From positions 64,491 through 128,490 of the forward strand of contig JBAZUY010000001.1 in NCBI GenBank assembly GCA_041661245.1: DNA of 64,000 nt, read 5' to 3'. This document shows, piece after piece, positions 2,099 to 62,437 of the stretch. The position numbers and the translations under genes are program-made. The stretch is from an archaeon (GTDB taxonomy: Archaea; Iainarchaeota; Iainarchaeia; Iainarchaeales; JAAZKV01). The notes under the pieces were generated by a model. The model was not told where the DNA came from. It did no database searches and was given only the letters and a program-made list of their open reading frames with translations. The number at the start of each line of letters is the position of its first letter. The stretch's first letter is position 1.

Positions 2099-2134
2099 TT
2101 CGTGTAGTAGCTTAATTTGCCGCACACAATTTTG

Positions 2135-2524: not shown

Positions 2525-2591
2525 AGTTTGCAAATCCACCACATTTCTATTTTAAAAAAATTTAACTCATTAAATAAAATAATTATTGAAT

Positions 2592-5048: not shown

Positions 5049-5141
5049 ACTAAACTAATGTTTCCAGAATATAAAAATCTAATTTTTAGTTAATTTTTTA
5101 AGTAATTAACTTTTATATACTTGGAAAAACACCATAAAGTA

Positions 5142-6098: not shown

Positions 6099-6162
6099 TT
6101 AATTAAAAAAATAAAATAAGCAAATGGTTTTTACCAAATGCTTATTTCAAATATTATCCCAC

Positions 6163-7158
6163 CTACTCGCGAATAGTTTCTTTTATTTTTGTTCCAAAGT
6201 GCATTCCTGCTTCCCCAACTTTAACAAGAACTTTGTCCCCAACTTTGAGGTCAGCTACAGAAATATGCTTTCCATCTTTTTGAATTAATCTAATTGTTTC
6301 AGCGTTTTGAAGAACAACTCCGGATTTATTTCCGTTAATTTCTGCTTCAACTAAAAGCAAAGGTCTTGTTTCAATTTTATTTCTCCCGATAATAATATTT
6401 TTTGCTTCCCCTTTGTAATTAATTGAAAGAGCTTCATCTCCGCTTTTTAATTCCATGGCATATTTTGTTTTTCCTTCGGGCAATAAAATATACGAATGAA
6501 CTGCACCGGCATTAACTCTAAAAGGACGAGTTGCACAATACTCAGCCTCATTTGATTCTGATTGAATTAAGAAAAGCATTTTTGGAGAATTCCCAACAAG
6601 CATTCCTTCCCCAACACTCATTAAATTACAAGTGTCAATGCAAGTTCTTTCTCCAGAACCAAGTACTTTTACTTCGGTAACAGTCGCCTCAACTAAATCA
6701 ACTGTGCCTGCACTTTTTGAAAATTCTTTTACAGCCGCCATAATCTCCGCTCGGTTTTTTGGTTTGATTATTACTCCTTTTACGCCTTGTTCCATCACAG
6801 AAAGCATTGTGGAAATATCTTGAACTCTGCAACCAACATAAACATTTGATGATTTTGAAATTAAATTCTCAAGAGGAATTATTTTCCAATCAGTAACATA
6901 AGCAATTACTGAACTTTTTTTTGCATACTCAAGTGCTTTATTTTCTTCTTCTTTTTTTGTAATTAATTGTTCAAAAATATCTTTTCCCAAAACTCTATCC
7001 CCGTCTTCGGAAATAGTTTCAATTCTCCCGAGTTTATGAACTTGTTCGGTTGTACCTTTTGGAACGATTATTGTTCTTATCCCCGCTTCAAGAGCAGAGG
7101 TAACAAGTTCCTTTTTGTAAGGTCTAATGTCAATGATTAATTCTTTTCCTGTTGTCAT
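6163..7158 (-). CDS. aroB': 3-dehydroquinate synthase II (archaeal type)
   Basis: About 330 aa with N-terminal KELVTSALEAGIRTIIVP. It is adjacent to and co-oriented with the ADH synthase gene, as in the archaeal alternative shikimate entry. Confidence 0.75.
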   Translation of the reverse strand: MTTGKELIIDIRPYKKELVTSALEAGIRTIIVPKGTTEQVHKLGRIETISEDGDRVLGKDIFEQLITKKEEENKALEYAKKSSVIAYVTDWKIIPLENLISKSSNVYVGCRVQDISTMLSVMEQGVKGVIIKPKNRAEIMAAVKEFSKSAGTVDLVEATVTEVKVLGSGERTCIDTCNLMSVGEGMLVGNSPKMLFLIQSESNEAEYCATRPFRVNAGAVHSYILLPEGKTKYAMELKSGDEALSINYKGEAKNIIIGRNKIETRPLLLVEAEINGNKSGVVLQNAETIRLIQKDGKHISVADLKVGDKVLVKVGEAGMHFGTKIKETIRE

Positions 7159-30067: not shown

Positions 30068-30139
30068 AATACAGGATGCTCAATAGGAGTTACGCGAGCG
30101 AGTATTAAAACCTTTTCAATTATTCAATTTTTGATCAGA

Positions 30140-30919
30140 ATGCTTTATTTAATTGGAATTGGACTAAAACCATCACACTTGACACTTGAAGCACTTGAAT
30201 GCATAAAAAAAAGCGACCAGGCATTCCTTGAAGTCTATACTTCCCAATATAGTGAAGGACTTTTAAAAGAATTAAGAGATTTAACTGGAAAAGACATAAA
30301 AGAAATTAACCGAACAGATGTTGAAGAGAATTTTACTTCCGCACTTACAAGCGCAAACAAAAACAATATTTGCTTACTTGTATTTGGAAACCCCCTAACT
30401 GCAACCACACACATTCAACTCTTGCTTGATGCCAAAGAAGCAGGAATAAAATACAAAGTTATCCCCGGAATTTCAATTACAAATATGATTGCAGAAAGCG
30501 GACTTGATGAATACAAATTTGGACGAACAGTAACCATTTGTTACCACTTGCCAAATTTTGAACCAGATTCATTTTATACCCAAATAAAAGAAAATCAAAA
30601 AATGGGACTACACACACTTTGTTTACTAGATATTAAAAAAGATCAACCACAACAAAGACTAATGAATTCTGTTGAAGCAATAGAAGTACTTGAAAAAATA
30701 ATGCTTAAGAAAAAACAAAAGGATAAATTCTTGTATATTGCACTACTCGGAATGGGATCTGAAAAACAAAAGATTCTCGTTGGAAGAAAAATGATATTCA
30801 CTTCAAAAGAAATTCATGAAGTTTACCCGCAAAGTATGATTATCCCCGGAAAAATGAATGAAAAAGAAAAAGAAATTGTAAAAAAGTTATACGATCCATT
30901 AATTGAATGGAAGGATTAA
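30140..30919 (+). CDS. dph5: Diphthine synthase
   Basis: MLYLIGIGL start, LVFGNPLTATTH and PGISI blocks of the tetrapyrrole-methylase-fold Dph5. Confidence 0.85.
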   Translation: MLYLIGIGLKPSHLTLEALECIKKSDQAFLEVYTSQYSEGLLKELRDLTGKDIKEINRTDVEENFTSALTSANKNNICLLVFGNPLTATTHIQLLLDAKEAGIKYKVIPGISITNMIAESGLDEYKFGRTVTICYHLPNFEPDSFYTQIKENQKMGLHTLCLLDIKKDQPQQRLMNSVEAIEVLEKIMLKKKQKDKFLYIALLGMGSEKQKILVGRKMIFTSKEIHEVYPQSMIIPGKMNEKEKEIVKKLYDPLIEWKD

Positions 30920-35841: not shown

Positions 35842-36507
35842 TCAAGCTGTATTAACTAATTCTTCAAGGAGTTTTAAGTTCACTTCTGAAAAGTCTTTAA
35901 TTATCAAATCAGCAGTTCCCTCAAAATCTTTTGGAGCAGTAAGCTCTGTTAAGAGGGCGATAGATTTCATTTCCGCGCGGTTTGCTGCTTCAATTCCATT
36001 TTTTGCATCCTCAAACACAACACACTCACTTGGTTTTGCACCCACTAACTCTGCCGCTTTAAGAAATAAATCAGGATTGGGTTTATGTAAAGCAACATCC
36101 TCAGCAGTAACTAAAGCATCCAAATATTTGCTAACTTTTATTAAATCAAGAATTCTTTTTGCTCGCTCTTTAGTACTAGACGTCGCAACTGCAATCTTCA
36201 CTCCTTTTTGTTTAGCGCAAGAAATTAAAGAGGTAATAGTTTTATTGGGACGCAATTCATTCTCCATAAGAGAGAGCTCAATTTTAAATGACTTTTTTGA
36301 AAACTCAAGAGGGTCAATTTTTGGCAAACTAAACTCTTTTTCCCACTCTTTAAGCTGGTCACGAAGAGACATACCAACAGATTTTTTTCTCTGCTCAGGA
36401 GTTAAAACAACCCCATATTCTTTTAGAAGCACTCCAAAAGATTTGGTAATAAATGGCGGGGAGTTGACAAGCACCCCATCCATATCAAAAATAATCGCTT
36501 TAAGCAT
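35842..36507 (-). CDS. HAD-superfamily hydrolase (beta-phosphoglucomutase-like subfamily IA)
   Basis: MLKAIIFDMDGVLV, ATSS, FEDAKNGIEAA. Confidence 0.75.
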   Translation of the reverse strand: MLKAIIFDMDGVLVNSPPFITKSFGVLLKEYGVVLTPEQRKKSVGMSLRDQLKEWEKEFSLPKIDPLEFSKKSFKIELSLMENELRPNKTITSLISCAKQKGVKIAVATSSTKERAKRILDLIKVSKYLDALVTAEDVALHKPNPDLFLKAAELVGAKPSECVVFEDAKNGIEAANRAEMKSIALLTELTAPKDFEGTADLIIKDFSEVNLKLLEELVNTA

Positions 36508-36535: not shown

Positions 36536-37948
36536 TTACTTCACAACAGCTTTAGCAATCGTTGAACCATCTTTGTTATCCACAAGTTCAATTCCTTTAG
36601 ATTTGAGTATTCCGCGTATCTCATCTGCACGCTTCCAATCTTTGGTCTGTTTTGCAATGCTTCTCTCATCAACTAGCTTTTGTTGTTCTTCAGTTATTTC
36701 AAAAAACTTTTCAGAAAAATCAAGAACTCCCATTACTGAATCTATTTTCTTCAAAAAATCAAGAGCTTCAATTGCACCATTTACTCCAAGCGCACCATCA
36801 TCAATTTGTTTATTAACTTTTTTAGCAAAATCAAAAACATACTTCATTGCTTCAGGAACATTCAAATCATTATCCATTGCTTCAGTGAACGCACTAAGTG
36901 CTTCATCAACAAAAATCTTTACAGAGTCATTTGCTTTTGTTTCTTTGATTGATTTTAATCTCTCAATCAAATTTTGTAATCCATCAAGAGTCTTTTGCGC
37001 GTCTTTTACTGATTCAAAAGTGAAATTTAATTGTTGTCTATAATTTGTATTAAGGAAAGTATACCTAATTGCTTTTGGTTTTAATCCTTTGTTCAATAAA
37101 TCTCTCAAAGTAAAAAAGTTTCCAAGAGACTTGGACATTTTTTGCCCTTCAACCATTAAGTGCGCAGTATGCATCCAATAATTAACAAATTTTTTCCCAC
37201 TCGCGGCTTCACTTTGAGCAATTTCATTTTCATGATGAGGAAATTTATTATCAATTCCACCAGTATGCAAATCAAAATGTTCTCCTAAATACTTCATACT
37301 CATCGCAGAACACTCAATGTGCCAACCTGGACGACCTTTCCCTAAAGAAGTTTCCCAAAATACTGGCCCATCATTTTCATCCCAAGCTTTCCATAAAGCA
37401 AAATCTCCAATTCCTTCTTTTTCATACTCATCTTGTTTAATCCTTGCACCAGCTTTTAGTTGAGTTGGATCAATTCCTGCTAGTTTTCCATAATTTGGAA
37501 ATTTTTTAATTGAATAATAAATACTTCCGTCTTCTCCACGATAAGCAATTCCTTTGTCAAGAAGTTTTTGAACAATTGCAACCATTTCAGAAATGTGCTC
37601 AGTTGCAGGGCAATAAATTTCTGCAGGCAAAATATTAAGTGCTGCAACATCTTCCAAAAATGCTTTTTTGTAAACACTAGTATATTCACTCAAAGCCATT
37701 TTTTTCTCAATGCTTCCTTTAATTGTCTTATCATCAACATCAGTATAATTCATTACTTGTTTTACTTTGTACCCCGAAAATATCAAGTAACGCTTAATCA
37801 AATCTTCCCAAGTATAGCACTTCAAATTCCCAATGTGAATATAATTGTAAATTGTTGGACCGCAAGTGTAAAGTCCTACTGCACCTGGCTTGATTGATTT
37901 AAACTCTTCAAGCTTATTTCCAAATGAATTAAAGAATTTTAATACCAT
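36536..37948 (-). CDS. cysS: Cysteinyl-tRNA synthetase
   Basis: CGPTIYNYIHIGN, GWHIECS, KMSKSLGN. Confidence 0.92.
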   Translation of the reverse strand: MVLKFFNSFGNKLEEFKSIKPGAVGLYTCGPTIYNYIHIGNLKCYTWEDLIKRYLIFSGYKVKQVMNYTDVDDKTIKGSIEKKMALSEYTSVYKKAFLEDVAALNILPAEIYCPATEHISEMVAIVQKLLDKGIAYRGEDGSIYYSIKKFPNYGKLAGIDPTQLKAGARIKQDEYEKEGIGDFALWKAWDENDGPVFWETSLGKGRPGWHIECSAMSMKYLGEHFDLHTGGIDNKFPHHENEIAQSEAASGKKFVNYWMHTAHLMVEGQKMSKSLGNFFTLRDLLNKGLKPKAIRYTFLNTNYRQQLNFTFESVKDAQKTLDGLQNLIERLKSIKETKANDSVKIFVDEALSAFTEAMDNDLNVPEAMKYVFDFAKKVNKQIDDGALGVNGAIEALDFLKKIDSVMGVLDFSEKFFEITEEQQKLVDERSIAKQTKDWKRADEIRGILKSKGIELVDNKDGSTIAKAVVK

Positions 37949-38048: not shown

Positions 38049-38279
38049 TTAATCAGAATCAAAATCTTCTTCATCACTGCCGGAAGATGCTTCTTCTTCC
38101 TCTTCTTCCATTTCGAATTCTTTACTTTCAATAAGTTTCAAAGCGCCCTTTTTGTCGGCAATTACAGTGTACTCTAGGTTACATTCAGAGCAAGCAACTG
38201 CATCTCCTTCTTCAAGGTCATCAATATTAACCTCAAATCTTGCCTTACATTCAGTGCATAATTTCTTCATTGAAGCCAT
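38049..38279 (-). CDS. LysW/ArgW-like zinc-ribbon protein with extended acidic C-terminal tail (76 aa from ATG 38279)
   Basis: MASMKKLCTECKARFEVNIDDLEEGDAVACSECNLEYTVI has the LysW layout: CxxC, then E.GD.V.CxxC, then an E-x-x-V beta strand. The tail is EFEMEEEEEEASSGSDEEDFDSD. The upstream part of the 102-aa track ORF overlaps the TATA box and is probably not coding. Confidence 0.6.
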   Translation of the reverse strand: MASMKKLCTECKARFEVNIDDLEEGDAVACSECNLEYTVIADKKGALKLIESKEFEMEEEEEEASSGSDEEDFDSD

Positions 38280-38301
38280 ACTTATTTTCCACCCATTTTC
38301 C

Positions 38302-38309
38302 TTTATAAA
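38302..38309 (-). promoter_or_regulatory. TATA-box-like element for the LysW-like gene
   Basis: tttataaa is centred about 26 nt upstream of ATG 38279. Confidence 0.35.
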
Positions 38310-38417
38310 CCTTTCCAAAATGGTCAAAAAATGCATTAAAATTAGTTTAAATGGCAAAATAAGAGAACGAGCTTAGTTAGGATAAGGGAAAAAGCTTAAT
38401 TTTGCCCCGTGTGGGTA

Positions 38418-39035: not shown

Positions 39036-39575
39036 TCATAATTCTTTTTTCATTAAACAGTTATCAACATATTTTTCATTAATTAGAGCTGCTTTTTTCA
39101 ATAACCCGTATTTTGAAAATCCAAGTTTTTTATAAAGCAAAATTGCAGGTTTATTTTTTGAATCAACTGCCAAAAGAACAAGTGTTTTGGACCCAGGTAA
39201 ATTCTTCAAAGTGAATTCCATTAAACCAATTCCAATACGATGACGACGATGAGAAGACTCAACAACAAGCGAAGAAATTTCAGCCCTGTGCTTATGTAAA
39301 CCTTTGCCGAAAACTACTTTGACATGCGCAACAATTCTTCCATTTTCTAGTGCAACAAATCGCTTATCAATTCCCTTAATAGTAGCACTTAATTTTTTTT
39401 GAACAGAAGATTTTTTCCAGTGCGGAAACAGAGCATGCACCTCGGAAATAGTGTTCAAATTTAATTCAGAGAGTTCTCCAAATATAATTCCGTCAAGCGA
39501 AGCTTTTGGGGAATTAATTTCATTTTTGGCACCCGCCAAAGGAAGATTATGCCCCAAAGCCATAATTTTAATCAA
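39036..39575 (-). CDS. GNAT-family N-acetyltransferase
   Basis: ISSLVVESSHRRHRIGIGLMEF (motif A) and LLYKKLGFSKYG. Its start overlaps the stop of the upstream protease gene by 4 nt. Confidence 0.7.
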   Translation of the reverse strand: MIKIMALGHNLPLAGAKNEINSPKASLDGIIFGELSELNLNTISEVHALFPHWKKSSVQKKLSATIKGIDKRFVALENGRIVAHVKVVFGKGLHKHRAEISSLVVESSHRRHRIGIGLMEFTLKNLPGSKTLVLLAVDSKNKPAILLYKKLGFSKYGLLKKAALINEKYVDNCLMKKEL

Positions 39576-40018
39576 CTCCTTTGTTTCTTTGCCAAATCAC
39601 TCTTTAGTTGGAGTCTTACTCGTTCGTTAGCATCTTTTGAGTCCCCAACTTTATTACTAGTATGAGTTTTTGAAACATCAATCAAAAAATTATTGTGAAT
39701 AATATCTCTTCCAATTAAAACTGAATAAGGCAAACCTTCTCTATCTTCAATATTTACTCCAGTTTTAATTTTCTTACCTTTAACAATAATAATTGCTTCA
39801 GCAATTGCTCTTCTTGTATAACCCCGAGGAGAAGAAGCACTCTTTATTTTAACACTTGAAATAATTGGTCCAACCCCTGCTTTAGCAGCGGTACGAACAT
39901 CAATACAAGTTCTTGTAGCACCAGTATCAAAAAGAGCTTTTTTTATTATAACTCCTTTCTTCCCCTTTATTCGAACCAAATCAACTAAACCAATTATTTT
40001 TTTTCCTTTGCTCATCAA
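39572..40018 (-). CDS. DUF785 / RimB-like retropepsin-fold protease (family historically named ATP-dependent zinc protease)
   Basis: ALFDTGATRTCID (DTGA), SASSPRGYTRRAI and EDREGLPYSVLIGRDIIHNNFLIDVS match the family usually encoded next to rimK. Confidence 0.7.
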   Translation of the reverse strand: MMSKGKKIIGLVDLVRIKGKKGVIIKKALFDTGATRTCIDVRTAAKAGVGPIISSVKIKSASSPRGYTRRAIAEAIIIVKGKKIKTGVNIEDREGLPYSVLIGRDIIHNNFLIDVSKTHTSNKVGDSKDANERVRLQLKSDLAKKQRS

Positions 40019-40130: not shown

Positions 40131-41048
40131 ATGGACATACTAATACTCGCGGAGAAAAAGAAAAATGCTGAAATGTTCGTGAGCGCAATTAAGGCAAAAG
40201 GCCATAATGCAACCTATATTCGCTTGTCCAAAATAATATTAGTCAGCAAACAAAATGAGAGCTTAATAAAATCTAAGGGAGAGGAATTAGCCCCCTATGA
40301 TGCAGTATTTATCCAAGCAAGAACTACCCTTGCCCCATTCATAGAGCCATTACTTGACCAATTAGAATCAGAAGGCTGCTACACCACTTCTAAAAAAGGC
40401 TCGTATTATATTGGAATGAACGAACCATACCAATTTGTAACCCTTTCTGTTGCAAAAGCACCAATACCAAAATCAATTACTTCAGGAAATGCAAAAAACA
40501 TTGAACACTTGTCAAAAAAACTAACTTACCCGTTACTTGCAAAATCCTTTATTGGAAGAACTGTCCAACAAGCAATCGTAGTAAACAACGCAAGAGCGCT
40601 AAATAGTTACATTAAAAGTATAAAAACAGAGATTGACGGATTCATGTTACGCCAATTCTCCAAAGCAGACATCATTTCGAGTGTAATGATTGGAAAAAAA
40701 ATATTCTCGGTGAAAAGAAAATTTACTGACGGAATAACTGCTGAAATTAGCGAAGGAAAAATTTACAAAGTAAGTGAGAGTGAAACAAAAACCATTTTCT
40801 CAGCAGCAAAAGCCTGCGGGTATGATATTGCAAGAGTAGATTTGTGTAAAGGAAAAATTGTGAAAGTTGATCCAATAATACCTTGGACGGATTTTAATAA
40901 GATTTGCTCAGAAAGAATTGAAGATTATGTGGCGGATTTTTTAATTGAACAAGCTATCCAAAATGAAGGAAAAAGAAAAGTTAAATATGATTTCCTAGGA
41001 TTAAGAAAAATATTTGGAAAAACTATTCTTGGGTGGTTATTCAAATGA
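40131..41048 (+). CDS. RimK-like ATP-grasp paralog with degenerate nucleotide-binding motifs
   Basis: Same length and layout as the next gene. However, the glycine-rich loop reads YPLLAKSFIGRTVQQAIVV, the RxN..GG block is missing, and only ARVDL and KVDP remain. Confidence 0.55.
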   Translation: MDILILAEKKKNAEMFVSAIKAKGHNATYIRLSKIILVSKQNESLIKSKGEELAPYDAVFIQARTTLAPFIEPLLDQLESEGCYTTSKKGSYYIGMNEPYQFVTLSVAKAPIPKSITSGNAKNIEHLSKKLTYPLLAKSFIGRTVQQAIVVNNARALNSYIKSIKTEIDGFMLRQFSKADIISSVMIGKKIFSVKRKFTDGITAEISEGKIYKVSESETKTIFSAAKACGYDIARVDLCKGKIVKVDPIIPWTDFNKICSERIEDYVADFLIEQAIQNEGKRKVKYDFLGLRKIFGKTILGWLFK

Positions 41049-41974
41049 CTCCCACAAAAATAATTTTCCCAGAACACACTCAAATACAAAAAGAAAATAA
41101 GAGTCTTTTAATAATCGGGTCAAAAACTTACAAACAATCAACCGTAAACATGCTTCTTGAAGAAGCAAAAAAGAAATTTTCAAATGTAATGTTTGTCCCA
41201 ATCGACAAAATACAAATACTTTCAGTTGAAGGAAAAACTGAACTCATTTACAAGGACAAAAACCTTCTTGAATTTGATGCAATTTACCCAAGACTTTCTT
41301 CAAGAGACTTTTTACTAGGAGAAGCGGTACTGAAAACAATTGAGAATAGCAAAGCATACTGCCCAGTAAATCTATCTGCATACCAAATATCAAATCATAA
41401 ATTTTATACCTCAAAAAAATTATCAAATCAAGGAATACCTGGGATTACAAGTACTTTATTTATTTCCCCAAAATATGCAGATTATGCCGTGGACGAAACA
41501 GGGTATCCTTTTGTAATGAAATTAATCTCAGGATTTGCAGGAAAAGGAGTTGTATTAATTAACTCTAAAGAACAAATGGAAAGCATACTTGAAGCAGTAC
41601 ACCTCTTTGAAGAATTTATTTCAACCCAAAAATTCATTAAGGGAAAAGACTCGGATGTACGATGCTATGTTATTGGAGATTATGTAATTGCAGTAAAAAG
41701 AAAATGTAAAAAAGGAGATTGGAGAGCAAACATTTCAAGAGGAGGAAGTGCAAGTCTAATTAATCCAACTCCCGAAATGCTAAATATTGCAAAAACAAGT
41801 GCAAAAGCACTTGGAATGGATTTGTGCTCAGTAGATTTAATGGAATACAAGAAAAAATGGGTAGTAATAGAAGTAAACTTTATGCCAGGACCTTTTAGAA
41901 AATTCCTCGGAAGCATGATTGCACAACAATGGATAAGATTTTTGTTTGAAAAATCAGGTAAGAACCAAAAATAA
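41045..41974 (+). CDS. RimK/LysX-family ATP-grasp ligase (canonical motifs)
   Basis: YPFVMKLISGFAGKGVVLI, DVRCYVIGDYVIA, WRANISRGGSA, CSVDLME...VIEVNFMPG. ATG 41045 overlaps the upstream TGA (ATGA). Confidence 0.8.
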   Translation: MTPTKIIFPEHTQIQKENKSLLIIGSKTYKQSTVNMLLEEAKKKFSNVMFVPIDKIQILSVEGKTELIYKDKNLLEFDAIYPRLSSRDFLLGEAVLKTIENSKAYCPVNLSAYQISNHKFYTSKKLSNQGIPGITSTLFISPKYADYAVDETGYPFVMKLISGFAGKGVVLINSKEQMESILEAVHLFEEFISTQKFIKGKDSDVRCYVIGDYVIAVKRKCKKGDWRANISRGGSASLINPTPEMLNIAKTSAKALGMDLCSVDLMEYKKKWVVIEVNFMPGPFRKFLGSMIAQQWIRFLFEKSGKNQK

Positions 41975-42036: not shown

Positions 42037-43173
42037 ATGCGATTTTTCAATTACACCCTTATTGATCAAAAAATCTGCCAACTAGCCGGCGCTATTGAAA
42101 CTAATCTACTAACTTACATTAACCCTCAAAATCTTGGAGAACAAAAGAAAAAATTCTTTGAATCCTTAAACAAAAATGAACAATATAACCCAGTTTTTAC
42201 TTACGCGTCAAGAAATCCACTTTATACATATTTTGACATGAATCCCAATTTTAAAATATACCAAAATGAATTAAAGGAATTAATTAAAGACCTCGGGGAA
42301 GACTCATTAGGAATAATATTTGAAAAAAAAATAATTGATCTTTTTGAGAGAATGGAACTAGTACGAAGCGTAGGAACCGAAAACTTTGCAGGAAACTCCG
42401 AATCCTATTATGGCACTGTGGACCCCCAAACATTAAGAAGAGCTAAAGAGTTATTGTCAAAAGAAATTGTTCTTGAGGAGAAAAAAATTCACTTTGATGA
42501 AGCGAAAAAAGTAATTGAAGCATTTTTGAAAAAGAAAAAACTCAATTACAAAGTAAAACAACGAGAAACTGAAAACGGAGCAAAATTTTCAGTAAATATA
42601 AGAACAAAAGAAATCTTCATTAACAAGGATGTGTTCTTTTCTGAAAATACACTCCGAAGACTTATTGCTCACGAAATAGAAGGACACGTTTACCGATATG
42701 AAAATGGACTCCTGCAGCCATATGGAATATTTTCAAGAGGATTATCAAAAGAAACACTTGAAACGGAAGAAGGCCTTGCAGTTTATATTGAACAACAACA
42801 AAAAATTAATATTGATGCCCAACTCAAAGAATATGCTGGAAGAGTCATGGCTATTACTACCGCATCAAAGAAAAGTTTCTTTGAAACATTTGAAGAAATG
42901 AACAAATACTTTTCACAAGAAGACTCCTTCACACTCGCGCTCCGAGCAAAAAGAGGAACATGGAAACAAGATGTTGGAAGTGCTTTTACAAAAGATGCAC
43001 TTTACTTAAAAGGGCTGCTATTGGTTGAAGACTTTTTGAAAGACCAAAAAGTTGAAACCCTTTACCACGGAAGATATTCCATAAACGACACCCCATTGGC
43101 TTTGGATATTGCGGGACTTGTAAAACCAGCACATCTGCCAGAGTGCTTAAAGAAAGAGAGCGCGAGAACATGA
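42037..43173 (+). CDS. DUF1704 / MATCAP-like metallocarboxypeptidase (QEGLA-motif family)
   Basis: IAHEIEGHV (HExxxH) followed by ETEEGLAVYIE (EGLA motif); length about 378 aa. Confidence 0.65.
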   Translation: MRFFNYTLIDQKICQLAGAIETNLLTYINPQNLGEQKKKFFESLNKNEQYNPVFTYASRNPLYTYFDMNPNFKIYQNELKELIKDLGEDSLGIIFEKKIIDLFERMELVRSVGTENFAGNSESYYGTVDPQTLRRAKELLSKEIVLEEKKIHFDEAKKVIEAFLKKKKLNYKVKQRETENGAKFSVNIRTKEIFINKDVFFSENTLRRLIAHEIEGHVYRYENGLLQPYGIFSRGLSKETLETEEGLAVYIEQQQKINIDAQLKEYAGRVMAITTASKKSFFETFEEMNKYFSQEDSFTLALRAKRGTWKQDVGSAFTKDALYLKGLLLVEDFLKDQKVETLYHGRYSINDTPLALDIAGLVKPAHLPECLKKESART

Positions 43174-44240
43174 TTTCAATAGATGATTCAACGAAAATCA
43201 AAAACATTAAACCACTTACTCTTCAAGCCCTACAAAAAGTGTTTGACCTCTATGAGATTACCCCGAAAAGCAATGTGCTTTTGTGGAGCAATACAAGCAA
43301 AAATAAGGTTTCTGAAAAACTAGCAAAAACATTTCTCCAAAGACTCAATCAACTCGGGTGCACCACATCTGTAATAATTGAAAAAGAAAAAACAAAACTG
43401 GGCCCAGCATCAAAAAAAACCCAAAAATGTATTCTTTCATTGACCCAGGGGGATATCTTTATTTCAATAGGCGCAGGAAATAGGGGATACGTGGAACAGA
43501 ATGGAAAACATGTTTTAATGAGAAAACTCATGAAAAAACAAGGGTTTAGGATGGTTTCTCTTGGAGGACTGGATTCAATAAAACTGCATAGAATAAATTC
43601 ATTTTTTGAAAGTTTTAATCATAATCAAAAAGAAATTAACTCCCTCAATAAAAAAATCAAAAATCTTTTAGAAAAAACAAAAACAATCAAAATTACTTGC
43701 CCAAAAGGAAGTAACTTAACAATGGAACTTAATAAAAACCCCGTGATTTCAAACGATGGAAACTGGAAAAAATACTCCACAAACTACCCAATAGGCGAAG
43801 TATACACCGCACCGAAAGAAGATTCCTGCAATGGAATTGCATTTGTTTCAAGCGCAAAGGTTTCTGGAAAAACTATTCTGCCCAAAAAACCAATAAAATT
43901 TATTTTTGAAAAAGGCTTACTTAAATCCACAAATAGCAAAGAAATTAACTCAAATCTAAAATATGTGGAGAAATTCAATAAAAAAAATAATATATTAAAT
44001 TGGAAAACCGCACCCCGAACAATTGCTGAGTTTGCTATTGGAACAAATAGAAAAGCAAGTATTGTGGGCGCAATGATTTGTGATGAAAAAACTCTGGGCA
44101 CTTGCCACTTTGCCATAGGAAACAATAAACACCTTGGAGGAAAAACTTACTGCCACGGACACTTTGATAACGTAATAAAAAATCCCACAATATGGTTTGA
44201 TGGAAAAAAAATAATGACAAATGGAAAACTTTTATTTTGA
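43170..44240 (+). CDS. M29-family (AmpS/PepS-like) aminopeptidase
   Basis: YPIGEVYTAP, EFAIGTN, CDEKTLGTCHFAIGNN, HGHFD. ATG 43170 overlaps the upstream TGA (ATGA). Confidence 0.7.
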   Translation: MISIDDSTKIKNIKPLTLQALQKVFDLYEITPKSNVLLWSNTSKNKVSEKLAKTFLQRLNQLGCTTSVIIEKEKTKLGPASKKTQKCILSLTQGDIFISIGAGNRGYVEQNGKHVLMRKLMKKQGFRMVSLGGLDSIKLHRINSFFESFNHNQKEINSLNKKIKNLLEKTKTIKITCPKGSNLTMELNKNPVISNDGNWKKYSTNYPIGEVYTAPKEDSCNGIAFVSSAKVSGKTILPKKPIKFIFEKGLLKSTNSKEINSNLKYVEKFNKKNNILNWKTAPRTIAEFAIGTNRKASIVGAMICDEKTLGTCHFAIGNNKHLGGKTYCHGHFDNVIKNPTIWFDGKKIMTNGKLLF

Positions 44241-44254
44241 ATACAACAACAAAA

Positions 44255-44905
44255 CTAATCCAATAAATATTTTATGTTTTCATAAGTTGTCTCTTTAGGA
44301 GTAAGTACTAAATCTGCTTGGGAATAATCTTGTTCAAAAAAAACATTTGTTTTGATAATTAGGCATTTCATTCCCGCAGCTTTTGCGGCAGTTAAACCCA
44401 AAACTGAATCCTCCAGCACAAGACAATGTTTTGGATTAACTTTAAGTAGTTCAGCAGCTTTCAAGTAAGGATCGGGATTTGGTTTATGTTTCACTGTATC
44501 CTCAAGTCCGACTATTTCATCAAAATAATTTCTTATTCCAAAATCTTCAAGAATTTTAGTTGTAACCTCTCTTTTTGTTGAAGTCGCAATCCCTAACTTA
44601 TATCCCTTTTCTTTCAAAACCTTTGCTAACTCCACTACTTCTCTTACAAGACAATTCTTTGATAAAAGTGAATAATAAAATTCTCTTTGGATTTTTCTAT
44701 ATTCTTCCCAATCCACTGGATACTTTGAGAGTAAAAATTCTTTATAATGATCTGGAGATCTAGCATATATTTGCTTAAAATCAGTTTCATCAAAGTTAAA
44801 TCCAACTTTTTTTAAACCTTGTTTTATGGATTCTTTGTGAATCATCTCAGAGTCAATTAAAACTCCATCTCGATCAAAAATAATAGCTTTAATCATAAAA
44901 GTCAC
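44255..44905 (-). CDS. HAD-superfamily hydrolase (subfamily IA)
   Basis: IKAIIFDRDGVLIDSE, ATST, LEDSVLGLTAAKAAGM. Confidence 0.75.
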   Translation of the reverse strand: MTFMIKAIIFDRDGVLIDSEMIHKESIKQGLKKVGFNFDETDFKQIYARSPDHYKEFLLSKYPVDWEEYRKIQREFYYSLLSKNCLVREVVELAKVLKEKGYKLGIATSTKREVTTKILEDFGIRNYFDEIVGLEDTVKHKPNPDPYLKAAELLKVNPKHCLVLEDSVLGLTAAKAAGMKCLIIKTNVFFEQDYSQADLVLTPKETTYENIKYLLD

Positions 44906-47808: not shown

Positions 47809-48294
47809 ATGATTGGTATGAATCATGAGAAAGAAAAAGTTATTCAAAAAATAAAGAATACTTACTGTCGAATAATGCCTTCAAAGCTTCACGGCGTTGG
47901 AGTATTTGCGATAAGAGACATCCCAAAAGATATAAATCCATTCGGGATAGAAACAAAACAAAAATGGGTCCGAGTTCACTTAAAAGACCTTGGCGAAATA
48001 CACCCAAACCTTAACGAGATGATAGAAGCATTTTATGTAATAAAAAAAGACGGAAGTGTATGGATAAACTCAGGCGGACTCGGATCAATTGGAATATCCT
48101 TTTACATGAACACTTCAAAAAACCCAAACATGAAAACAATTGATGAAGGATTTACTTTTATTACAAGCAAAGAAATAAAATGCGGGGAAGAGTTGCTCGC
48201 AGATTATGGAGAATTCGACTGGAAATACAAGCAATCCGAGAAAGATAAAACAAAAACTAAATTGATAAAGAAAAACAAAACTAAAGGCAAGTAA
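47809..48294 (+). CDS. SET-domain protein (divergent) with lysine-rich tail
   Basis: LHGVGVFAIRDIPKD, FYMNTSKNPNM (degenerate NHSxxPN), GEELLADYG. Confidence 0.55.
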   Translation: MIGMNHEKEKVIQKIKNTYCRIMPSKLHGVGVFAIRDIPKDINPFGIETKQKWVRVHLKDLGEIHPNLNEMIEAFYVIKKDGSVWINSGGLGSIGISFYMNTSKNPNMKTIDEGFTFITSKEIKCGEELLADYGEFDWKYKQSEKDKTKTKLIKKNKTKGK

Positions 48295-48327: not shown

Positions 48328-48756
48328 ATGAAATATCCCTCAAAAGTAATTAAAATTTCTTACGGCAAAGCACTAGTTGCAACAAAAGATTTACCTGCAG
48401 GGACAGTTGTTCAAAAATTTGAAGGAGAAATAATGACTTACAAAGAAGTTCCCGAGGATATGGTTTGCCATGCGATTTGCGTTGGAGAAGAAAACGAGGA
48501 TAAATGGGTTGTTTCAAAAACAGATGCAATTTATGCCAATCATGCATGCGAACCAAACTGCGAAGTTGGGGATGATTTAAACATCATAACCATAAAAGAA
48601 GTAAAAAAAGACGAAGAACTAACATTTGTTTACAATGAACTTAGTCCTGAAGAACGAGAAGCAGAGTTCTTGTGGGATAAAAAATGGGACTTTGAATGCA
48701 AATGCGGCAGTAAAAACTGCCAAGGAAACATTAACAAATACGTAAAAAGAAAATAA
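48328..48756 (+). CDS. SET-domain protein-lysine methyltransferase with post-SET Cys motif
   Basis: GKALVATKDLPAGTVV, YANHACEPNCEV, DEELTFVYN, CKCGSKNCQG. Confidence 0.85.
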   Translation: MKYPSKVIKISYGKALVATKDLPAGTVVQKFEGEIMTYKEVPEDMVCHAICVGEENEDKWVVSKTDAIYANHACEPNCEVGDDLNIITIKEVKKDEELTFVYNELSPEEREAEFLWDKKWDFECKCGSKNCQGNINKYVKRK

Positions 48757-57453: not shown

Positions 57454-58731
57454 TCAAAACTTGAATTTTGATCCAGGAAAATCAAAAGTAGCGAAATAAT
57501 CCTTTGTATTCTCAGCCCTTCGGATTAGTTCCACTTTGCCATTCTCTCGCAATAATAATTCAGCACTTCTTAATTTTCCGTTATAATTGAAACCCATCGC
57601 ATACCCATGCGCTCCAGCATTATGAATTGCAATTAAATCCCCTACTTCAATTTTTGGAAGCATTCGATCAATTGCAAACTTATCATTATTCTCGCAAAGA
57701 GAACCAACAAGATCATATTTTTCTGTCCGAGGGGCATTTTCTTTTCCAAGAACTGTAATGTGATGGTATGAACCATAAAGAGCAGGCCTCATTAAATTTG
57801 CCATACACGCATCTACTCCAATATATTCTTTGTAAATATGCTTCTCATGAATTGCGCGAGTGATTAAAAAATCAAAGGGGCCTGTAACCATTCGGCCATT
57901 TTCCATTACTACTTTTAGAGGAGCTAATTTATTTTTCACGATTTTTTCTTCATACATTTTTTTTATTCCATTTGAGACATACTCCAAATCAACTGCTTTT
58001 TGTTCGGGTTTGTAAGGAATTCCAATTCCCCCTCCCAAATTGATAAAATCAAACTTTATTCCAACTTTGTTTGAAATTTCAACTACTAAATCAAATAACA
58101 TTTCAGCAGTTTGAATGAAAGCATCAGATCTTAATTCATTTGAGGCAAGCATTGTATGCAACCCAAATCTCTTTACTCCTTTTTGTTTTGCTATTTTATA
58201 TGCTTCAAATAATTGTTCTCTTGTCAAACCATATTTTGCATCCTGGGGACTACCAATAACATTTCCTTCAGCTGTTGCCCTTAATGGACCGGGATTATAT
58301 CTAAAACAAATAAGCTCAGGAAGTTTACCCCCCAATGCATTTTCCAAATACTCAATATGAGTAATATCGTCAAGATTAATTATTGCACCAAGCATAAACG
58401 CTTTAACAAATTCATCTGCAGGAGTATTATTTGAAGTGAACATTATTTGTTCCCCTTTAAATCCAAGTTTTTCTGCAATCAAAAGTTCAGGAAGAGAACT
58501 GCAATCCACGCCCATCCCTTCTTCTTTTAAAATTGAAATCAAAGTTGGGTTAGGACAAGCCTTAACTGCAAAATAATTCTTAAAACCAGTAATCCAGGAA
58601 AATGAGTTGTATAAATTTTGGGCATTATTTCTAATTCCTTTCTCGCCATATAAGTGAAACGGGGTTGGATAAGTTTTGATTATTTCTTCAATTTGAGATT
58701 TTGTAAAAAATAAATCATTATCATTATTCAT
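57454..58731 (-). CDS. lysA: Diaminopimelate decarboxylase
   Basis: Fold-III PLP decarboxylase blocks (YFAVKACPN, GGGIGIPY, GSLCENND, NAGAHGY) within a dap operon. Confidence 0.8.
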   Translation of the reverse strand: MNNDNDLFFTKSQIEEIIKTYPTPFHLYGEKGIRNNAQNLYNSFSWITGFKNYFAVKACPNPTLISILKEEGMGVDCSSLPELLIAEKLGFKGEQIMFTSNNTPADEFVKAFMLGAIINLDDITHIEYLENALGGKLPELICFRYNPGPLRATAEGNVIGSPQDAKYGLTREQLFEAYKIAKQKGVKRFGLHTMLASNELRSDAFIQTAEMLFDLVVEISNKVGIKFDFINLGGGIGIPYKPEQKAVDLEYVSNGIKKMYEEKIVKNKLAPLKVVMENGRMVTGPFDFLITRAIHEKHIYKEYIGVDACMANLMRPALYGSYHHITVLGKENAPRTEKYDLVGSLCENNDKFAIDRMLPKIEVGDLIAIHNAGAHGYAMGFNYNGKLRSAELLLRENGKVELIRRAENTKDYFATFDFPGSKFKF

Positions 58732-58793: not shown

Positions 58794-60020
58794 CTAAAGC
58801 TTTAAATTATTTTTAATACTTTCAACTGCTTTAATCACATTCTCTCTATGCCCAAAAGCACTTACTCTAAAATATCCTTCCCCGCTTGGACCAAATCCTG
58901 AACCGGGAGTAATTACAACATGCGCTTCAGTTAACATTTTGTCAAACAAATCCCAGGATTTCATTCCATTTGGAGTTTTTACCCACAAGTAAGGAGCATT
59001 AACTCCCCCGGAGACAACTTTGAGTCCTTTTTCTTCAAGACCTTTTTTTATTATTCTTGAGTTTTCCATATAGTACTCAATAATTTCTTTGCACTCTTTT
59101 AGTCCTTCTTTACTTAGAGCCGCTACTCCCCCATCTTGAACAATATTACTTGCTCCATTAAACATAGTTGTTTGCCTTCTATTCCACATTGAATTTAATT
59201 TTCCAATACTAGCATCCTCACACACACAATTCTTTGGAACAATACTCCAACCCAATCTTACCCCAGTAAAACCAGCTGATTTAGAGAAACTATTAATTTC
59301 AATCGCACACTCTTTTGCGCCAGGAATTACATAAATTGTTTTTGGTAAAGTTGAATCAGAAATAAACTCATTATAAGCCGCATCAAAAATTATTACTGAT
59401 TTATTTTTAATTGCATAATCCACAAATTCTTTTAACTGCTCTCTTGTTGCAACAGCCCCAGTTGGATTATTTGGACTGCAAATATAAATTAAATCAACTT
59501 TTTCTGTTGGAAGAGATGGAAAGAAATTATTTTCCAAATTGCACCCCATGTAAACTAATCCATCATAAGTAACCCCTGTATTTTTTCCTGTTCTGCCTGC
59601 AATTACATTAGTATCAACGTATACTGGATATGCGGGGTCTTGAACTGCAACTTTACATTCATTTGAAAAAATTGACTGAATGTTTGCAACATCACACTTT
59701 GCACCATCACTCACAAAAACTTCATCAGGAAGAATTTCTGCACCCAAATCTTTGTAATAACTTACAATTGCTTCTCGAAGATTCTTATTTCCTTGTTCAT
59801 CCCCATAACCAGTATAAGTTTTAACGTTTGAAAGTTTGTCAACGGAAGCGTGAAGCCCTTTAATTATTTCACTTGGCAAAGCTTCAGTTGTATTTCCTAC
59901 CCCTAGTCTTAAAATTTCAATACCTGGATTCTTTTCTGAATAAACTTTTACTCTCCTTGAAATCTCTGGAAATAAATACCCTGCAGAAAGTTTATCATAA
60001 TTAGAATTTATTTTTGCCAT
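58794..60020 (-). CDS. dapL: LL-diaminopimelate aminotransferase
   Basis: INSNYDKLSAGYLFPEISRRV N-terminus and SFSKSAGFTGVRLGW PLP-lysine block. Confidence 0.8.
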   Translation of the reverse strand: MAKINSNYDKLSAGYLFPEISRRVKVYSEKNPGIEILRLGVGNTTEALPSEIIKGLHASVDKLSNVKTYTGYGDEQGNKNLREAIVSYYKDLGAEILPDEVFVSDGAKCDVANIQSIFSNECKVAVQDPAYPVYVDTNVIAGRTGKNTGVTYDGLVYMGCNLENNFFPSLPTEKVDLIYICSPNNPTGAVATREQLKEFVDYAIKNKSVIIFDAAYNEFISDSTLPKTIYVIPGAKECAIEINSFSKSAGFTGVRLGWSIVPKNCVCEDASIGKLNSMWNRRQTTMFNGASNIVQDGGVAALSKEGLKECKEIIEYYMENSRIIKKGLEEKGLKVVSGGVNAPYLWVKTPNGMKSWDLFDKMLTEAHVVITPGSGFGPSGEGYFRVSAFGHRENVIKAVESIKNNLKL

Positions 60021-60051
60021 ATAACTCACCACATCTTCTAATAAATAACGC

Positions 60052-60942
60052 TTATAAAAATCCCATTTCTTTCATTAATTGTTCAACTTTTTTTCGGTTC
60101 TCTGGCCTAAGTTCGCAAATAGGTAAACGATAAATCTCTTTGCACATCCCTTTCATCACAGCCATTGCTTTAATTGGAATTGGATTAGTTTCAATAAAAG
60201 CCATTTTGAAAAACGGCATTAACTTTTCATTCAACTTTTCAGCCAAAGAATAATTTCCTTTTAGGGCCACGGAAGTTAATTCTACTACCTCTTTTGGGAT
60301 AACATTACTTACAACACTAATAATTCCATCTCCGCCTGCTTTGATTACATCAAGAGTAAGCGCATCATCCCCACTAAGTACACAAAAATAATCTGGTTTT
60401 TTTGCAATTACATCCTTGATTTGATTTAAGTCCCCACTTGCTTCTTTCACTGCAACAATATTTGGGCAATCCTTAATCAAACATAATAAAGTATCTGTTT
60501 CTAAATTTACCCCACATCTGCTTTTAATGTTGTAAAGTATTATTGGAAGTCTTGTTGATTCAGCAATTTTTTTGAAGTGACGATACATTCCTTCCTGAGT
60601 TGGTTTGTTGTAGTAAGGGAGAACTTGTAAAATTGCATCCGCCCCAAAATTTTGAGCATGAATAGTCATTTGAACAGCTTCATAATTTGAATTACTCCCA
60701 GTGCCTGCAATAACTGGAACTCTTTTGTTTACTTTTCTCACAGTGAAATCAATCACCGTGTCACTTTCTTCAGGACTAAGCGTTGGAGATTCCCCAGTTG
60801 TTCCGCAAACAACAATCCCTTGCACTCCAGAAGCAATTTGAAATTCAATTAAATTCCCAAGGGCAGTATAATCAATAAGATCATATTCATCAAACGGAGT
60901 AATAATTGCAGTATAAACTCCGCGAAATAATTTTTCAACCAT
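60052..60942 (-). CDS. dapA: 4-hydroxy-tetrahydrodipicolinate synthase
   Basis: GVYTAIITPF, VCGTTGESPTLS, VAVKEASGD (active-site Lys). Confidence 0.88.
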   Translation of the reverse strand: MVEKLFRGVYTAIITPFDEYDLIDYTALGNLIEFQIASGVQGIVVCGTTGESPTLSPEESDTVIDFTVRKVNKRVPVIAGTGSNSNYEAVQMTIHAQNFGADAILQVLPYYNKPTQEGMYRHFKKIAESTRLPIILYNIKSRCGVNLETDTLLCLIKDCPNIVAVKEASGDLNQIKDVIAKKPDYFCVLSGDDALTLDVIKAGGDGIISVVSNVIPKEVVELTSVALKGNYSLAEKLNEKLMPFFKMAFIETNPIPIKAMAVMKGMCKEIYRLPICELRPENRKKVEQLMKEMGFL

Positions 60943-60953
60943 ATTTTACCACT

Positions 60954-61700
60954 TCAATTTTTTATTATTGTTTTCATTAAATCATCAATATTATAAAATC
61001 CTTTTTTTCCATTAATGAACTCTGCCGCAAGTACAGAACCAAATGCAAATCCTTCTCTCCCTCTTGCAATGTGTTTTAGTTCAATTGTATCTACTGGGCA
61101 ATCAAATAAAACAGTGTGAGTTCCTGGAATGCTTCCGCACCTAACACTCGCAACATGTAGTTCTTCCGGATCGGGTTTTCTTTCAGCAAATCTATCTCCA
61201 ACAATTTTCTTTTTCCGAGTCATATTATCTAAAATTATTTTCCCAATTATCTGAGCACTTCCCCCAGGAGAATCTTTTTTCTGATTATGGTGAATCTCAT
61301 AAACTGCAGCATCATACTCAGGAATATTATTCATTACTTTGGCAGTCTCTGCAACTGCGTGGAAAAAAACATTCATCCCAATACTAAAATTTCCACTCCA
61401 AATACAACCAAGTCCATTTGTAATAGATTTCATTTCATTCATCTTATCGTACCACCCAGTAGTACCGACAACTAAGTTCTTGCCAAGTGAAGAAACTTTT
61501 TTTACATTCTCAAAAATAACTGCAGGCGCAGTGAAATCAATACAAACATCCACTCCTGCAAGACTTTGCGCATTAATTTCTTTAAAATCAGAGTCCTGCA
61601 CAACAGGATCAATTTTTACTATGCTATGTCCTCTTGCAAGTGCAACTACTTCCACAGCCTTCCCCATTTTTCCATAACCAATTAAAGCGATTTTCAAAAA
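60954..61700 (-). CDS. dapB: 4-hydroxy-tetrahydrodipicolinate reductase
   Basis: KIALIGYGKMGK Rossmann motif; EIHHNQKKDSPGGSA catalytic block. Start is taken at TTG 61700, preceded by ggtg (the track start is GTG 61709). Confidence 0.85.
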   Translation of the reverse strand, partial: FLKIALIGYGKMGKAVEVVALARGHSIVKIDPVVQDSDFKEINAQSLAGVDVCIDFTAPAVIFENVKKVSSLGKNLVVGTTGWYDKMNEMKSITNGLGCIWSGNFSIGMNVFFHAVAETAKVMNNIPEYDAAVYEIHHNQKKDSPGGSAQIIGKIILDNMTRKKKIVGDRFAERKPDPEELHVASVRCGSIPGTHTVLFDCPVDTIELKHIARGREGFAFGSVLAAEFINGKKGFYNIDDLMKTIIKN

Positions 61701-61801
61701 CAACACCAATAAAGAATACGTAGTCTATGCCACAATTAGTTTATATAATGGGAGCATTTACTACGATATTCGTAATAGTTCTTTCTTTTTTACTCAAACA
61801 A

Positions 61802-62221
61802 TTAATCTTCTTTTAGAACAGGAAATGTTTCTGTTTGAATAACTCCGTCAATTGATCTAATTAATTCGAGAATTTGATTTAATTTATTAAAATCCTCTGC
61901 TTGAACAAAAGCAATTATTGAAAATCTTCCCGTAACTTCAAATACTCTCGAAGCACCGAGTTTAATTATTCGTTCAGAAATCTTTTGAGTAGGAACACTA
62001 GAGGAAGTAGTTATTTCAATTACTGCATTCGTAGCAGACCCTAAATCAATTGTAAATCTTCTAATTATTCTTTTTTCAATCAGTTTTGCAACTCTTTGTC
62101 TAATAGTACCTTCAGAAACACCTAACTCTTTTGCTATTGAAAGAAAAGGAGTTCTTGAATCACTTGAAAGCTTTTGAATAATAGCCCTATCAACTGAATC
62201 CATACTTTCTTTAGCCATCAT
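61802..62221 (-). CDS. Lrp/AsnC-family transcriptional regulator
   Basis: LDSVDRAIIQKLSSDSRTPFLSIAKELGVSEGTIRQRVAKL HTH plus a RAM-like C-terminal domain. Confidence 0.85.
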   Translation of the reverse strand: MMAKESMDSVDRAIIQKLSSDSRTPFLSIAKELGVSEGTIRQRVAKLIEKRIIRRFTIDLGSATNAVIEITTSSSVPTQKISERIIKLGASRVFEVTGRFSIIAFVQAEDFNKLNQILELIRSIDGVIQTETFPVLKED

Positions 62222-62254
62222 AAACCTTTTATACCAAAATGCTGTATTTGCATA

Positions 62255-62437
62255 ATGGAAGAAAGAGCACAAGGGGCAATTGAATACTTATTGTTAATCG
62301 CGGCAGCAGTAGTTGTTGTAGCAGTAGTAGTTGGAATGATGATTGGGCTATTGACAACAGGCGGAGACCAAGCAACAAATGCAGGAAGCGATTATAATGG
62401 ACAGCTTAATGATTTAAATAAATTAAAAAGACCATAA
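62255..62437 (+). CDS. Minimal archaeal pilin-like protein with class III signal peptide
   Basis: MEERA/QGAIEYLLLIAAAVVVVAVVVGMMIG followed by a short polar tail. Confidence 0.65.
   Translation: MEERAQGAIEYLLLIAAAVVVVAVVVGMMIGLLTTGGDQATNAGSDYNGQLNDLNKLKRP

Follow-up and report, generated by a model that had tools for sequence, protein, structure and literature searches.

A remote LysW-like zinc-ribbon protein with an acidic tail, encoded near a RimK-type gene module in an iainarchaeal genome

In a 64 kb stretch of an Iainarchaeota genome (64,000 nucleotides of contig JBAZUY010000001.1, hereafter the window), a short minus-strand gene encodes a small protein that joins a four-cysteine zinc ribbon to a disordered acidic tail. 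This zinc-ribbon protein is a remote, divergent member of the LysW superfamily, a structural claim that Pfam, Foldseek, and hhalign make solid. Its gene lies 1.85 kb from genes for an intact RimK-family ligase and a degenerate paralog, in the company of RimB- and MATCAP-type peptidase genes, and we tentatively propose that the protein is the acidic-tail acceptor of this writer/eraser module. An earlier reading of the DNA, made without database searches (the sequence-only reading), had left the protein as either a carrier recruited to a different chemistry or the substrate of a RimK-type ligase. A role as the ligase substrate emerges as the best single mechanistic guess, the functional link being circumstantial, and a metabolite carrier ranks lower.

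The LysW-like ribbon and its acidic tail

The best Pfam family of the zinc-ribbon protein is the LysW ribbon, PF21344, at 22.6 bits against a cut-off of 27, with the CSL/Dph3 finger and FYDLN_acid as the next families. When 62 relatives were scanned singly, the LysW ribbon was the best family in 56, with a best E-value of 3e-7. In the LysW profile search suggested alongside the sequence-only reading, the protein scored below the cut-offs of all curated NCBIfam LysW models (13.4 bits vs 53.2 for TIGR01206; 25.5 vs 75 for NF041070). The AlphaFold (AF2) model has a mean pLDDT of 73 and contains five short strands and a disordered tail below pLDDT 50-60. A Foldseek search of this model against the PDB placed LysW from Thermus, Sulfolobus, and Thermococcus at ranks 1-4, 6, and 8, with TM-scores of 0.55-0.64 per target and 28-31% identity over 46-49 columns; the E-values of these matches are weak (0.02-0.7), as expected because the domain is so small. 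An exhaustive profile search reached a canonical LysW ending in EGEDWGE (P0104) and also a set of CPECE...PLEL proteins, all members of which match NCBIfam LysW models. In hhalign, the zinc-ribbon family aligned to the CPECE...PLEL set with 99% probability (E 5e-18, 56 columns), a comparison to be read with the caveat that the set was itself retrieved with the profile of the zinc-ribbon family. Overall, PF21344, the Foldseek ranks, and hhalign bear out the earlier description of a LysW lookalike. The protein is not, however, a LysW ortholog: it falls below the curated cut-offs, its family lacks EDWGE and has a variable C-terminal residue, and no lysZ/Y/J/K-like gene was found among the larger window ORFs scanned.

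Sequence searches of the PDB gave a different order, with Dph3/Kti11 first (E 5e-4, family profile) and LysW lower. These matches raise the possibility of an archaeal Dph3/Kti11 counterpart, that is, a small CSL-type metal ribbon that serves as electron donor to radical-SAM enzymes, Dph2 of the diphthamide pathway among them. The two proteins are alike around both knuckles (RF.V..DDL.EGD.VA.CP.C.L), Pfam CSL gave a sub-threshold match in 39 of 62 relatives, and Dph5 is encoded about 7 kb from the zinc-ribbon gene. Yeast Dph3/Kti11 also has an acidic C-terminus. However, LysW fills the top Foldseek ranks, and the 50 best matches include no Dph3 structure. The window protein scores 20.4 bits against PF05207 (cut-off 29.2), and its match covers only profile positions 21-53 of 55, so that the N-terminal strands of the CSL domain, a hairpin, are missing, and its first knuckle is CxxC, not CxC. 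We found no linkage to Dph2 or to the pathway, and the zinc-ribbon family is confined to one phylum whereas archaea in general make diphthamide. Despite the best PDB sequence match, we rejected a Dph3/Kti11 identity on the basis of fold search, domain coverage, and knuckle type, and we consider such a role very improbable.

Other labels were also set aside. FYDLN_acid (PF09538/TIGR02300), a bacterial family of unknown function in which a zinc ribbon precedes a long acidic low-complexity region, matched weakly in 22 of 62 relatives; the window protein reaches 20.5 bits against a cut-off of 23.9, without the FYDLN motif, and the match is mainly compositional. Brz, RpoP, and other zinc-ribbon labels were sub-threshold and generic.

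A word-indexed search found 35 close relatives with 64-88% identity. In the 34 that were aligned, the four Cys and the linker L-I-E-S-K-x-x-E-M are invariant, and DLEEGD and NLEYT are also common to them. A broader profile recovered 217 relatives at E ≤ 0.01, and nearly all of the named ones belong to 'Candidatus Diapherotrites/Iainarchaeum' archaea. The family is narrow, since an exhaustive HMMER search of 1.84 billion representatives yielded merely 39 matches at E ≤ 0.001, and it appears confined to the Iainarchaeota (DPANN). Given these relatives and their shared residues, the open reading frame (ORF) is a real and constrained gene and not a chance ORF. Source names for the family are inconsistent and include RpoP, LysW, Trm112, HypF, and 'sulfonate ABC transporter'.

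The conserved linker is followed by 20-26 mostly acidic residues. The window tail contains six consecutive Glu (EEEEEE) and ends in EEDFDSD, with Asp as the final residue, so the earlier description of a non-canonical acidic tail holds. It exceeds the LysW tail by what we take to be about 10-15 residues. Most close relatives have tails that end in [YF]DSD and are otherwise variable and acidic. Across the whole family, alignment of the C-termini, as the sequence-only reading had recommended, showed that a terminal Glu is not a fixed feature: the chain may close with D, E, S, or A, in endings such as ...DEDEDYE, ...DEDEDYS, ...FDEFYEE, and ...YYEDDA. The EDWGE motif of LysW is likewise not present in the family tails. 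What recurs is an acidic run together with a Tyr or Phe 1-5 residues from the C-terminus, and this aromatic residue loosely parallels the Trp of EDWGE.

Such tails are rare in the surrounding DNA. Within the window, no ORF of at least 40 aa other than the zinc-ribbon gene has an acid-rich C-terminus, and across 928 kb of related DNA the zinc-ribbon family contributes 54 of the 56 such ORFs. One of the two non-family ORFs is a called 45-aa ORF at locus L075 (9107-9244, plus strand) that is nearly all acidic (…DEEEEPEELPADDSGDFE) and lies just upstream of the Yip1-like gene.

The ORF and the protein sequence quoted from it by the sequence-only reading are present on the minus strand. Counted from the ATG of MASMKK and with the stop included, the gene encodes 76 aa (MASMKKLCTECKARFEVNIDDLEEGDAVACSECNLEYTVIADKKGALKLIESKEFEMEEEEEEASSGSDEEDFDSD), a form identical to database protein P0001 (uncultured archaeon). 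An alternative start, MKKLC at 38270, gives a 73-aa product (38049-38270) and is the sole start kept in all homologs. The minus-strand ORF that contains the gene spans 38049-38357, and its conserved part begins at 38279 or 38270. The span first given, 38049-38309, therefore holds for the gene up to 38279, and positions 38280-38309 are noncoding promoter. As had been proposed, the gene has its own TATA-like box, TTTATAAA. Among 29 distinct related loci, most carry the same box, 31-38 nt upstream of the codon that starts MKKLC, and because its position is kept, the promoter can be regarded as the gene's own and conserved. The 28-nt promoter string occurs once in the window, and the spacing from TATA box to ATG implies a leaderless or near-leaderless mRNA. 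We looked for a promoter motif common to this gene and the divergent RimK/retropepsin promoters and saw only a generic TATA followed by GGAA. A scan for sigma-70 promoters and terminators was set aside as uninformative for an archaeon; the window has a G+C content of 34% and contains archaeal genes for TFIIB, Dph5, and class III signal peptide proteins.

The RimK module and its linkage to the zinc-ribbon gene

Two tandem RimK-family genes form a module with the peptidase genes around them (Table 1). RimK2 is closer to E. coli RimK (120 bits) than to LysX/ArgX (43-59 bits), and when aligned to E. coli RimK it keeps all catalytic motifs, namely the Lys, the Gly-rich loop, WRANISRGG, and EVN. RimKlike1 retains the pre-ATP-grasp domain, the fold, and the ATP-binding Lys, with only the Rimk_N domain above its cut-off. 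The Gly-rich loop, RxNxxRGG, and the ExN metal motif are gone from 12 of 12 aligned members, whose sequences are otherwise well conserved. This pattern suggests a non-catalytic pseudo-enzyme subunit of a heteromeric ligase. RimKlike1 homologs were found in the same phylum only, and a search for more distant relatives returned nothing below 44% identity. Within the sensitivity of these searches, RimKlike1 occurs in the same narrow taxonomic range as the zinc-ribbon family, which counts in favor of a functional link.

The ligase genes start beyond the Yip1-like, GNAT, and retropepsin genes and are divergent to those three. The RimK-type ligase had been called adjacent to the zinc-ribbon gene; it is in fact separated from it by these three genes.

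The RimB and MATCAP families both include enzymes that act on acidic or polyglutamate protein tails. Characterized RimB is an endopeptidase for runs of at least five to six Glu and stimulates RimK (PMC11957791); the window protein encodes EEEEEE. MATCAP/TMCP enzymes strip terminal Tyr, Glu, and polyglutamate from tubulin tails (PMC10499314). The NCBIfam RloA models scored the window retropepsin far under their cut-offs, and the MATCAP-like protein did not meet the TIGR02421 equivalog cut-off (159 vs 338.65). A second MATCAP gene, whose product is 32-36% identical to that of the first, occupies the position of the M29-like gene in L005, L006, L008, L010, and L013-L015 and likewise in L035, L037, L040, L042, L045, L047, and L065. 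Because this second MATCAP substitutes for M29, the end of the module is always made up of one or two exopeptidases, whose type varies.

Table 1. Features of the window discussed in the text (window positions; aa, amino acids)
Feature	Position	Strand	Evidence or remark
LysW-like zinc-ribbon gene with acidic tail	38049..38279	-	homologs, Pfam LysW ribbon, Foldseek, hhalign, AF2
Parts of the zinc-ribbon protein			ribbon CxxC...CxxC; linker KKGALKLIESKEFEME; tail EEEEEASSGSDEEDFDSD
TATA box TTTATAAA of the zinc-ribbon gene's own promoter	38302..38309	-	23-30 nt upstream of first ATG
Cysteinyl-tRNA synthetase (CysRS), downstream of zinc-ribbon gene	36536..37948	-	syntenic neighbor in most lineages examined
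Yip1-like multi-pass membrane protein, 185 aa	38418..38975	-	hhalign; Pfam Yip1 in homologs
GNAT acetyltransferase	39036..39575	-	absent from a few sister loci
Retropepsin-like aspartic peptidase, RimB/DUF785 type	39572..40018	-	PF05618 30.7 bits, cut-off 27; DTG (FDTGATR)
Degenerate RimK paralog RimKlike1, 305 aa	40131..41048	+	TIGR00768 29.1 bits vs 143.4; 16-nt overlap with next gene
Intact RimK-family alpha-L-glutamate ligase RimK2	41033..41974	+	TIGR00768 153.5 bits, cut-off 143.4
MATCAP/DUF1704 metallocarboxypeptidase	42037..43173	+	PF08014 153 bits, cut-off 27; HEIEGH, EEGLA
M29-like aminopeptidase	43143..44240	+	second MATCAP paralog in its place in many sister genomes
lysA	57454..58731	-	above curated cut-off
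dapL	58794..60032	-	above curated cut-off
dapA	60052..60942	-	above curated cut-off
dapB	60954..61709	-	above curated cut-off
Lrp/AsnC-type regulator beside dapB	61802..62272	-	best match LysM regulator model, 121.5 bits, cut-off 180
Dph5	30131..30919	+	TIGR00522 195 bits, cut-off 114.3
HAD-family hydrolase paralogs	35842..36507; 44255..44905	-; -	on either side of the CysRS/zinc-ribbon/RimK region
Divergent PurD-like ATP-grasp enzyme, 474 aa	46325..47749	+	weak GARS_A/GARS_C matches; few kb from RimK module
Tandem small SET-domain proteins	47809..48294; 48328..48756	+; +	putative lysine methyltransferases
Subtilase (Peptidase_S8) with CARDB domain, 1495 aa	50606..55093	-	probably a large surface protease

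A possible mechanism would have the small C4 zinc ribbon dock on a partner enzyme, so that the flexible acidic tail with its near-terminal aromatic residue could enter the active site. In the window clade, the partner would most likely be the neighboring tail-modifying module. We infer that the zinc-ribbon protein may be the substrate, that RimK2 may add amino acids, probably glutamate, to the C-terminal carboxylate of its tail, and that RimK2 probably does so in a heteromeric complex in which the catalytically degenerate RimKlike1 would be the docking subunit. Removal of tail residues would then fall to the peptidases of the module, namely the RimB-like retropepsin, one or more MATCAP-like carboxypeptidases, and the M29 enzyme.

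Several observations favor this proposal. To our knowledge, the sole biochemical role of the LysW-type fold is ligation by RimK-family ATP-grasp enzymes, and the only established RimK protein substrate we know of is bS6, which is absent from archaea. Because archaea are without bS6, the RimK of this archaeon needs another acceptor. An intact RimK2 and its paralog lie near the zinc-ribbon gene together with a retropepsin and a MATCAP of tail-acting families, and the ligase pair is found near the zinc-ribbon gene in two arrangements, that of the window clade and that of one distant lineage described below. Chance proximity to a tail-modifying module is unlikely because acid-tailed proteins are rare; a rough, post hoc estimate is about 0.02-0.05.

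We surveyed the window clade in 22 GTDB loci and 42 metagenome loci (RimKlike1 at least 47% identical). The gene order MATCAP - RimK2 - RimKlike1 <> retropepsin - (GNAT) - membrane protein - zinc ribbon - CysRS holds in every contig that extends far enough (about 45 loci). The GTDB and metagenome scans returned only this syntenic clade, and conserved linkage as proof was therefore dropped as non-discriminating. A second survey covered ten distant lineages via eleven loci, with CysRS 41-45% identical where found. The sequence-only reading had asked whether long-tailed homologs always neighbor RimK-like genes. They do so throughout the one syntenic clade but in just 1 of 10 distant lineages, so that the answer is negative as a general rule.

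That lineage, L023 (CysRS 45% identical), is the only distant one with RimK genes within 10 kb of the zinc-ribbon gene. Tandem orthologs of RimKlike1 (33%) and RimK2 (38%) lie there 3.5 kb from it, at 4782-5621 and 5618-6499, in a different arrangement and beside M20 and C39-like peptidase genes. Across 1174-6499 of this locus, the ligase pair is preceded by genes for an M20 peptidase, a third RimK-like protein (opposite strand), and a C39-like peptidase of 509 aa, in that order. The second gene of the pair was called as two pieces, possibly owing to a frameshift.

Rather than an ATP-grasp gene, it is the genes for a Yip1-like membrane protein and for CysRS that accompany the zinc-ribbon gene most steadily. 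In 9 of 10 distant lineages, an immediate neighbor encodes a multi-pass membrane protein of about 200 aa, and CysRS lies 0.1-4.3 kb away in 7 of 10. The window copy of the membrane protein has no match to Pfam PF04893, which 9 of 17 homologs do match (best E 3.4e-7). The window-clade and distant membrane proteins are homologous (hhalign 96%, E 2e-9); pairwise phmmer of the window protein against the distant neighbors of about 200 aa gave no match, and profile-profile comparison was required.

These surveys also supply most of what speaks against the acceptor proposal. In the window clade, synteny extends over the whole region and takes in KefB, SprT, TerC, and CysRS equally, which makes the linkage there weak functional evidence. 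Nine of 10 distant lineages have no RimK gene within 10 kb of the zinc-ribbon homolog. The zinc-ribbon gene has its own promoter, and three genes stand between it and the ligase. The C-terminal residue is unconserved, and known RimK and LysX acceptors end in Glu. The length after the ribbon is similar in RimK-linked (37-44 residues) and unlinked (33-40) lineages, and neither tail length nor acidic runs nor C-terminal type showed a clear relation to whether RimK, GNAT, M29, or a second MATCAP is present. Finally, the module may need no protein substrate, because RimK enzymes also make free poly-glutamate or modify small molecules; the hits of the RimK module include MptN/CofF-type models.

Nearly as probable as the acceptor proposal is that the zinc-ribbon protein is independent of the RimK module, as a phylum-specific protein whose tail docks elsewhere and whose proximity to the module is inherited gene order. 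Candidate partners would be a basic cytoplasmic loop of the Yip1-like protein or a basic nucleic-acid-binding protein, and the RimK module would make or trim free poly-glutamate, an N-acetylated acidic peptide, or another protein. The Yip1-like gene, which lies beside the homolog throughout the window clade as well as in the distant lineages, the nearby CysRS, the gene's own conserved promoter, and the usual distance from RimK all agree with independence, as does the presence of the acidic-plus-aromatic C-terminus with or without a nearby RimK. The combination of GNAT and a RimK-like ligase, moreover, resembles known small-molecule routes (weak TIGR03103 matches), of which the synthesis of NAAG by RIMKLA/B is one. 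However, independence leaves unexplained why a LysW-fold protein co-locates with its sole known partner enzyme class, and it must treat as coincidence both a closeness to the module that the rarity of acid-tailed proteins makes unlikely and the return of the ligase pair near the zinc-ribbon gene in L023. In addition, the Yip1-like and zinc-ribbon genes form no operon, because they are convergent in L028.

Lysine genes and the amino-group carrier alternative

The genes lysA, dapL, dapA, and dapB, correctly located by the sequence-only reading at 57.4-61.7 kb, exceed their curated cut-offs and constitute the DAP route to lysine; they are context and lie outside the zinc-ribbon system. The Lrp/AsnC-type regulator encoded beside dapB may control these genes. 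The absence of nearby lysZ/lysY/lysJ/lysK-like genes, also claimed earlier, was confirmed for AA_kinase (LysZ), Semialdhyde_dh (LysY), Aminotran_3 (LysJ), and M20 (LysK), none of which was found among the larger window ORFs scanned (most ORFs above listing thresholds of 110-150 aa). The genes listed at the distant loci likewise include no lysZ/Y/J/K set. An M20 (LysK-type) peptidase is encoded 3-8 kb from the zinc-ribbon homolog in L023, L024, and L028.

These genes bear on the idea of a true LysW-style amino-group carrier, in which a metabolite would be joined through its amino group to the terminal carboxylate of the tail by an ATP-grasp enzyme, modified while tethered, for example by GNAT, and then freed by a peptidase, with MATCAP or M29 in the place of LysK. 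The LysW-superfamily fold and an acidic-aromatic C-terminus resembling EDWGE are consistent with such a carrier. So are the two RimK/LysX-family genes nearby, which are reminiscent of LysX plus ArgX, and the peptidases that could free a product; Streptomyces offers a precedent for carriers put to a different chemical use. Nevertheless, lysine is made by the DAP route, and no kinase, reductase, or aminotransferase of the LysZ/Y/J type occurs among the scanned window ORFs or the listed distant-locus genes. RimK2 is much nearer to RimK than to LysX/ArgX, and one of the two ligase paralogs is without catalytic motifs. The terminal residue is unconserved where LysW has an invariant Glu, and this variability makes it unlikely that the protein carries a substrate on the side chain of a fixed Glu at its end. 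We therefore regard a metabolite carrier as improbable, and the zinc-ribbon gene should not be taken as evidence for the aminoadipate pathway.

Related systems and implications

The acceptor proposal can be set beside three known systems. LysW/ArgW (PDB 3wwl, 3vpb_E, 5k2m) resembles the zinc-ribbon protein in size, in the strand order of the C4 ribbon, and in an acidic turn (EEGD vs ELGE), as well as in a flexible acidic tail that has an aromatic residue within a few positions of its C-terminus and in a RimK-family ATP-grasp gene nearby. The differences are that the window tail ends in ...ED[YF]DSD rather than EDWGE, with a variable terminal residue in the family, and that here lysZ/Y/J/K partners are lacking, the ligase is RimK-like and not LysX-like, lysine comes from the DAP route, and scores lie below the LysW cut-offs.

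In bacteria, RimK polyglutamylates bS6 (RpsF), whose acidic C-terminal tail beside a RimK-type ligase and a RimB-type peptidase provides the second parallel. In contrast to bS6, an unrelated protein, the window protein has a tail ending in Asp and is a candidate for modification, and the window module adds to the bacterial RimBK pair a pseudo-RimK, a MATCAP-like carboxypeptidase, GNAT, and M29 or a second MATCAP. By analogy, the zinc-ribbon protein would work most like LysW or bS6, its small domain offering an acidic tail to an enzyme of the ATP-grasp type, while being a member of neither family.

The third parallel is the tail cycle of eukaryotic tubulin (TTL/TTLL, MATCAP/TMCP, CCP), in which a disordered acidic tail carries a Tyr or Phe near its C-terminus and is served by an ATP-grasp amino-acid ligase and a MATCAP-family metallocarboxypeptidase, enzyme types that are encoded together in the window. 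The ligase here is RimK-type and not TTL-type, the aromatic residue is non-terminal, and the carrier is a 75-aa zinc-ribbon protein, so the parallel is an analogy only. Taken further, it would describe a prokaryotic 'tail code', in which a LysW-derived mini-protein bears a tubulin-like acidic Tyr/Phe tail that a RimK-type ligase and its pseudo-enzyme lengthen and MATCAP- and RimB-type peptidases shorten. We consider this full picture doubtful. If true, it would provide the first natural substrate for an archaeal RimK and for prokaryotic MATCAP/DUF1704 enzymes, for which we know of no substrate, and it would link amino-group carrier proteins to protein polyglutamylation in evolution. A literature search, which did not cover the 2009 amidoligase survey, found no paper linking LysW-like proteins, RimK, or MATCAP in DPANN archaea.

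If the link to the RimK module is not real, the gene still marks out a LysW-like family restricted to one phylum, to which automatic pipelines give inconsistent names. The zinc-ribbon protein is a concrete, clonable candidate substrate encoded beside RimK-, RimB-, and MATCAP-type enzymes. If the link is real, it would mean that the LysW scaffold found a further use outside amino-acid biosynthesis, that archaea possess reversible tail glutamylation with its own erasers, and that MATCAP-type enzymes acted on acidic tails before tubulin was among their substrates.

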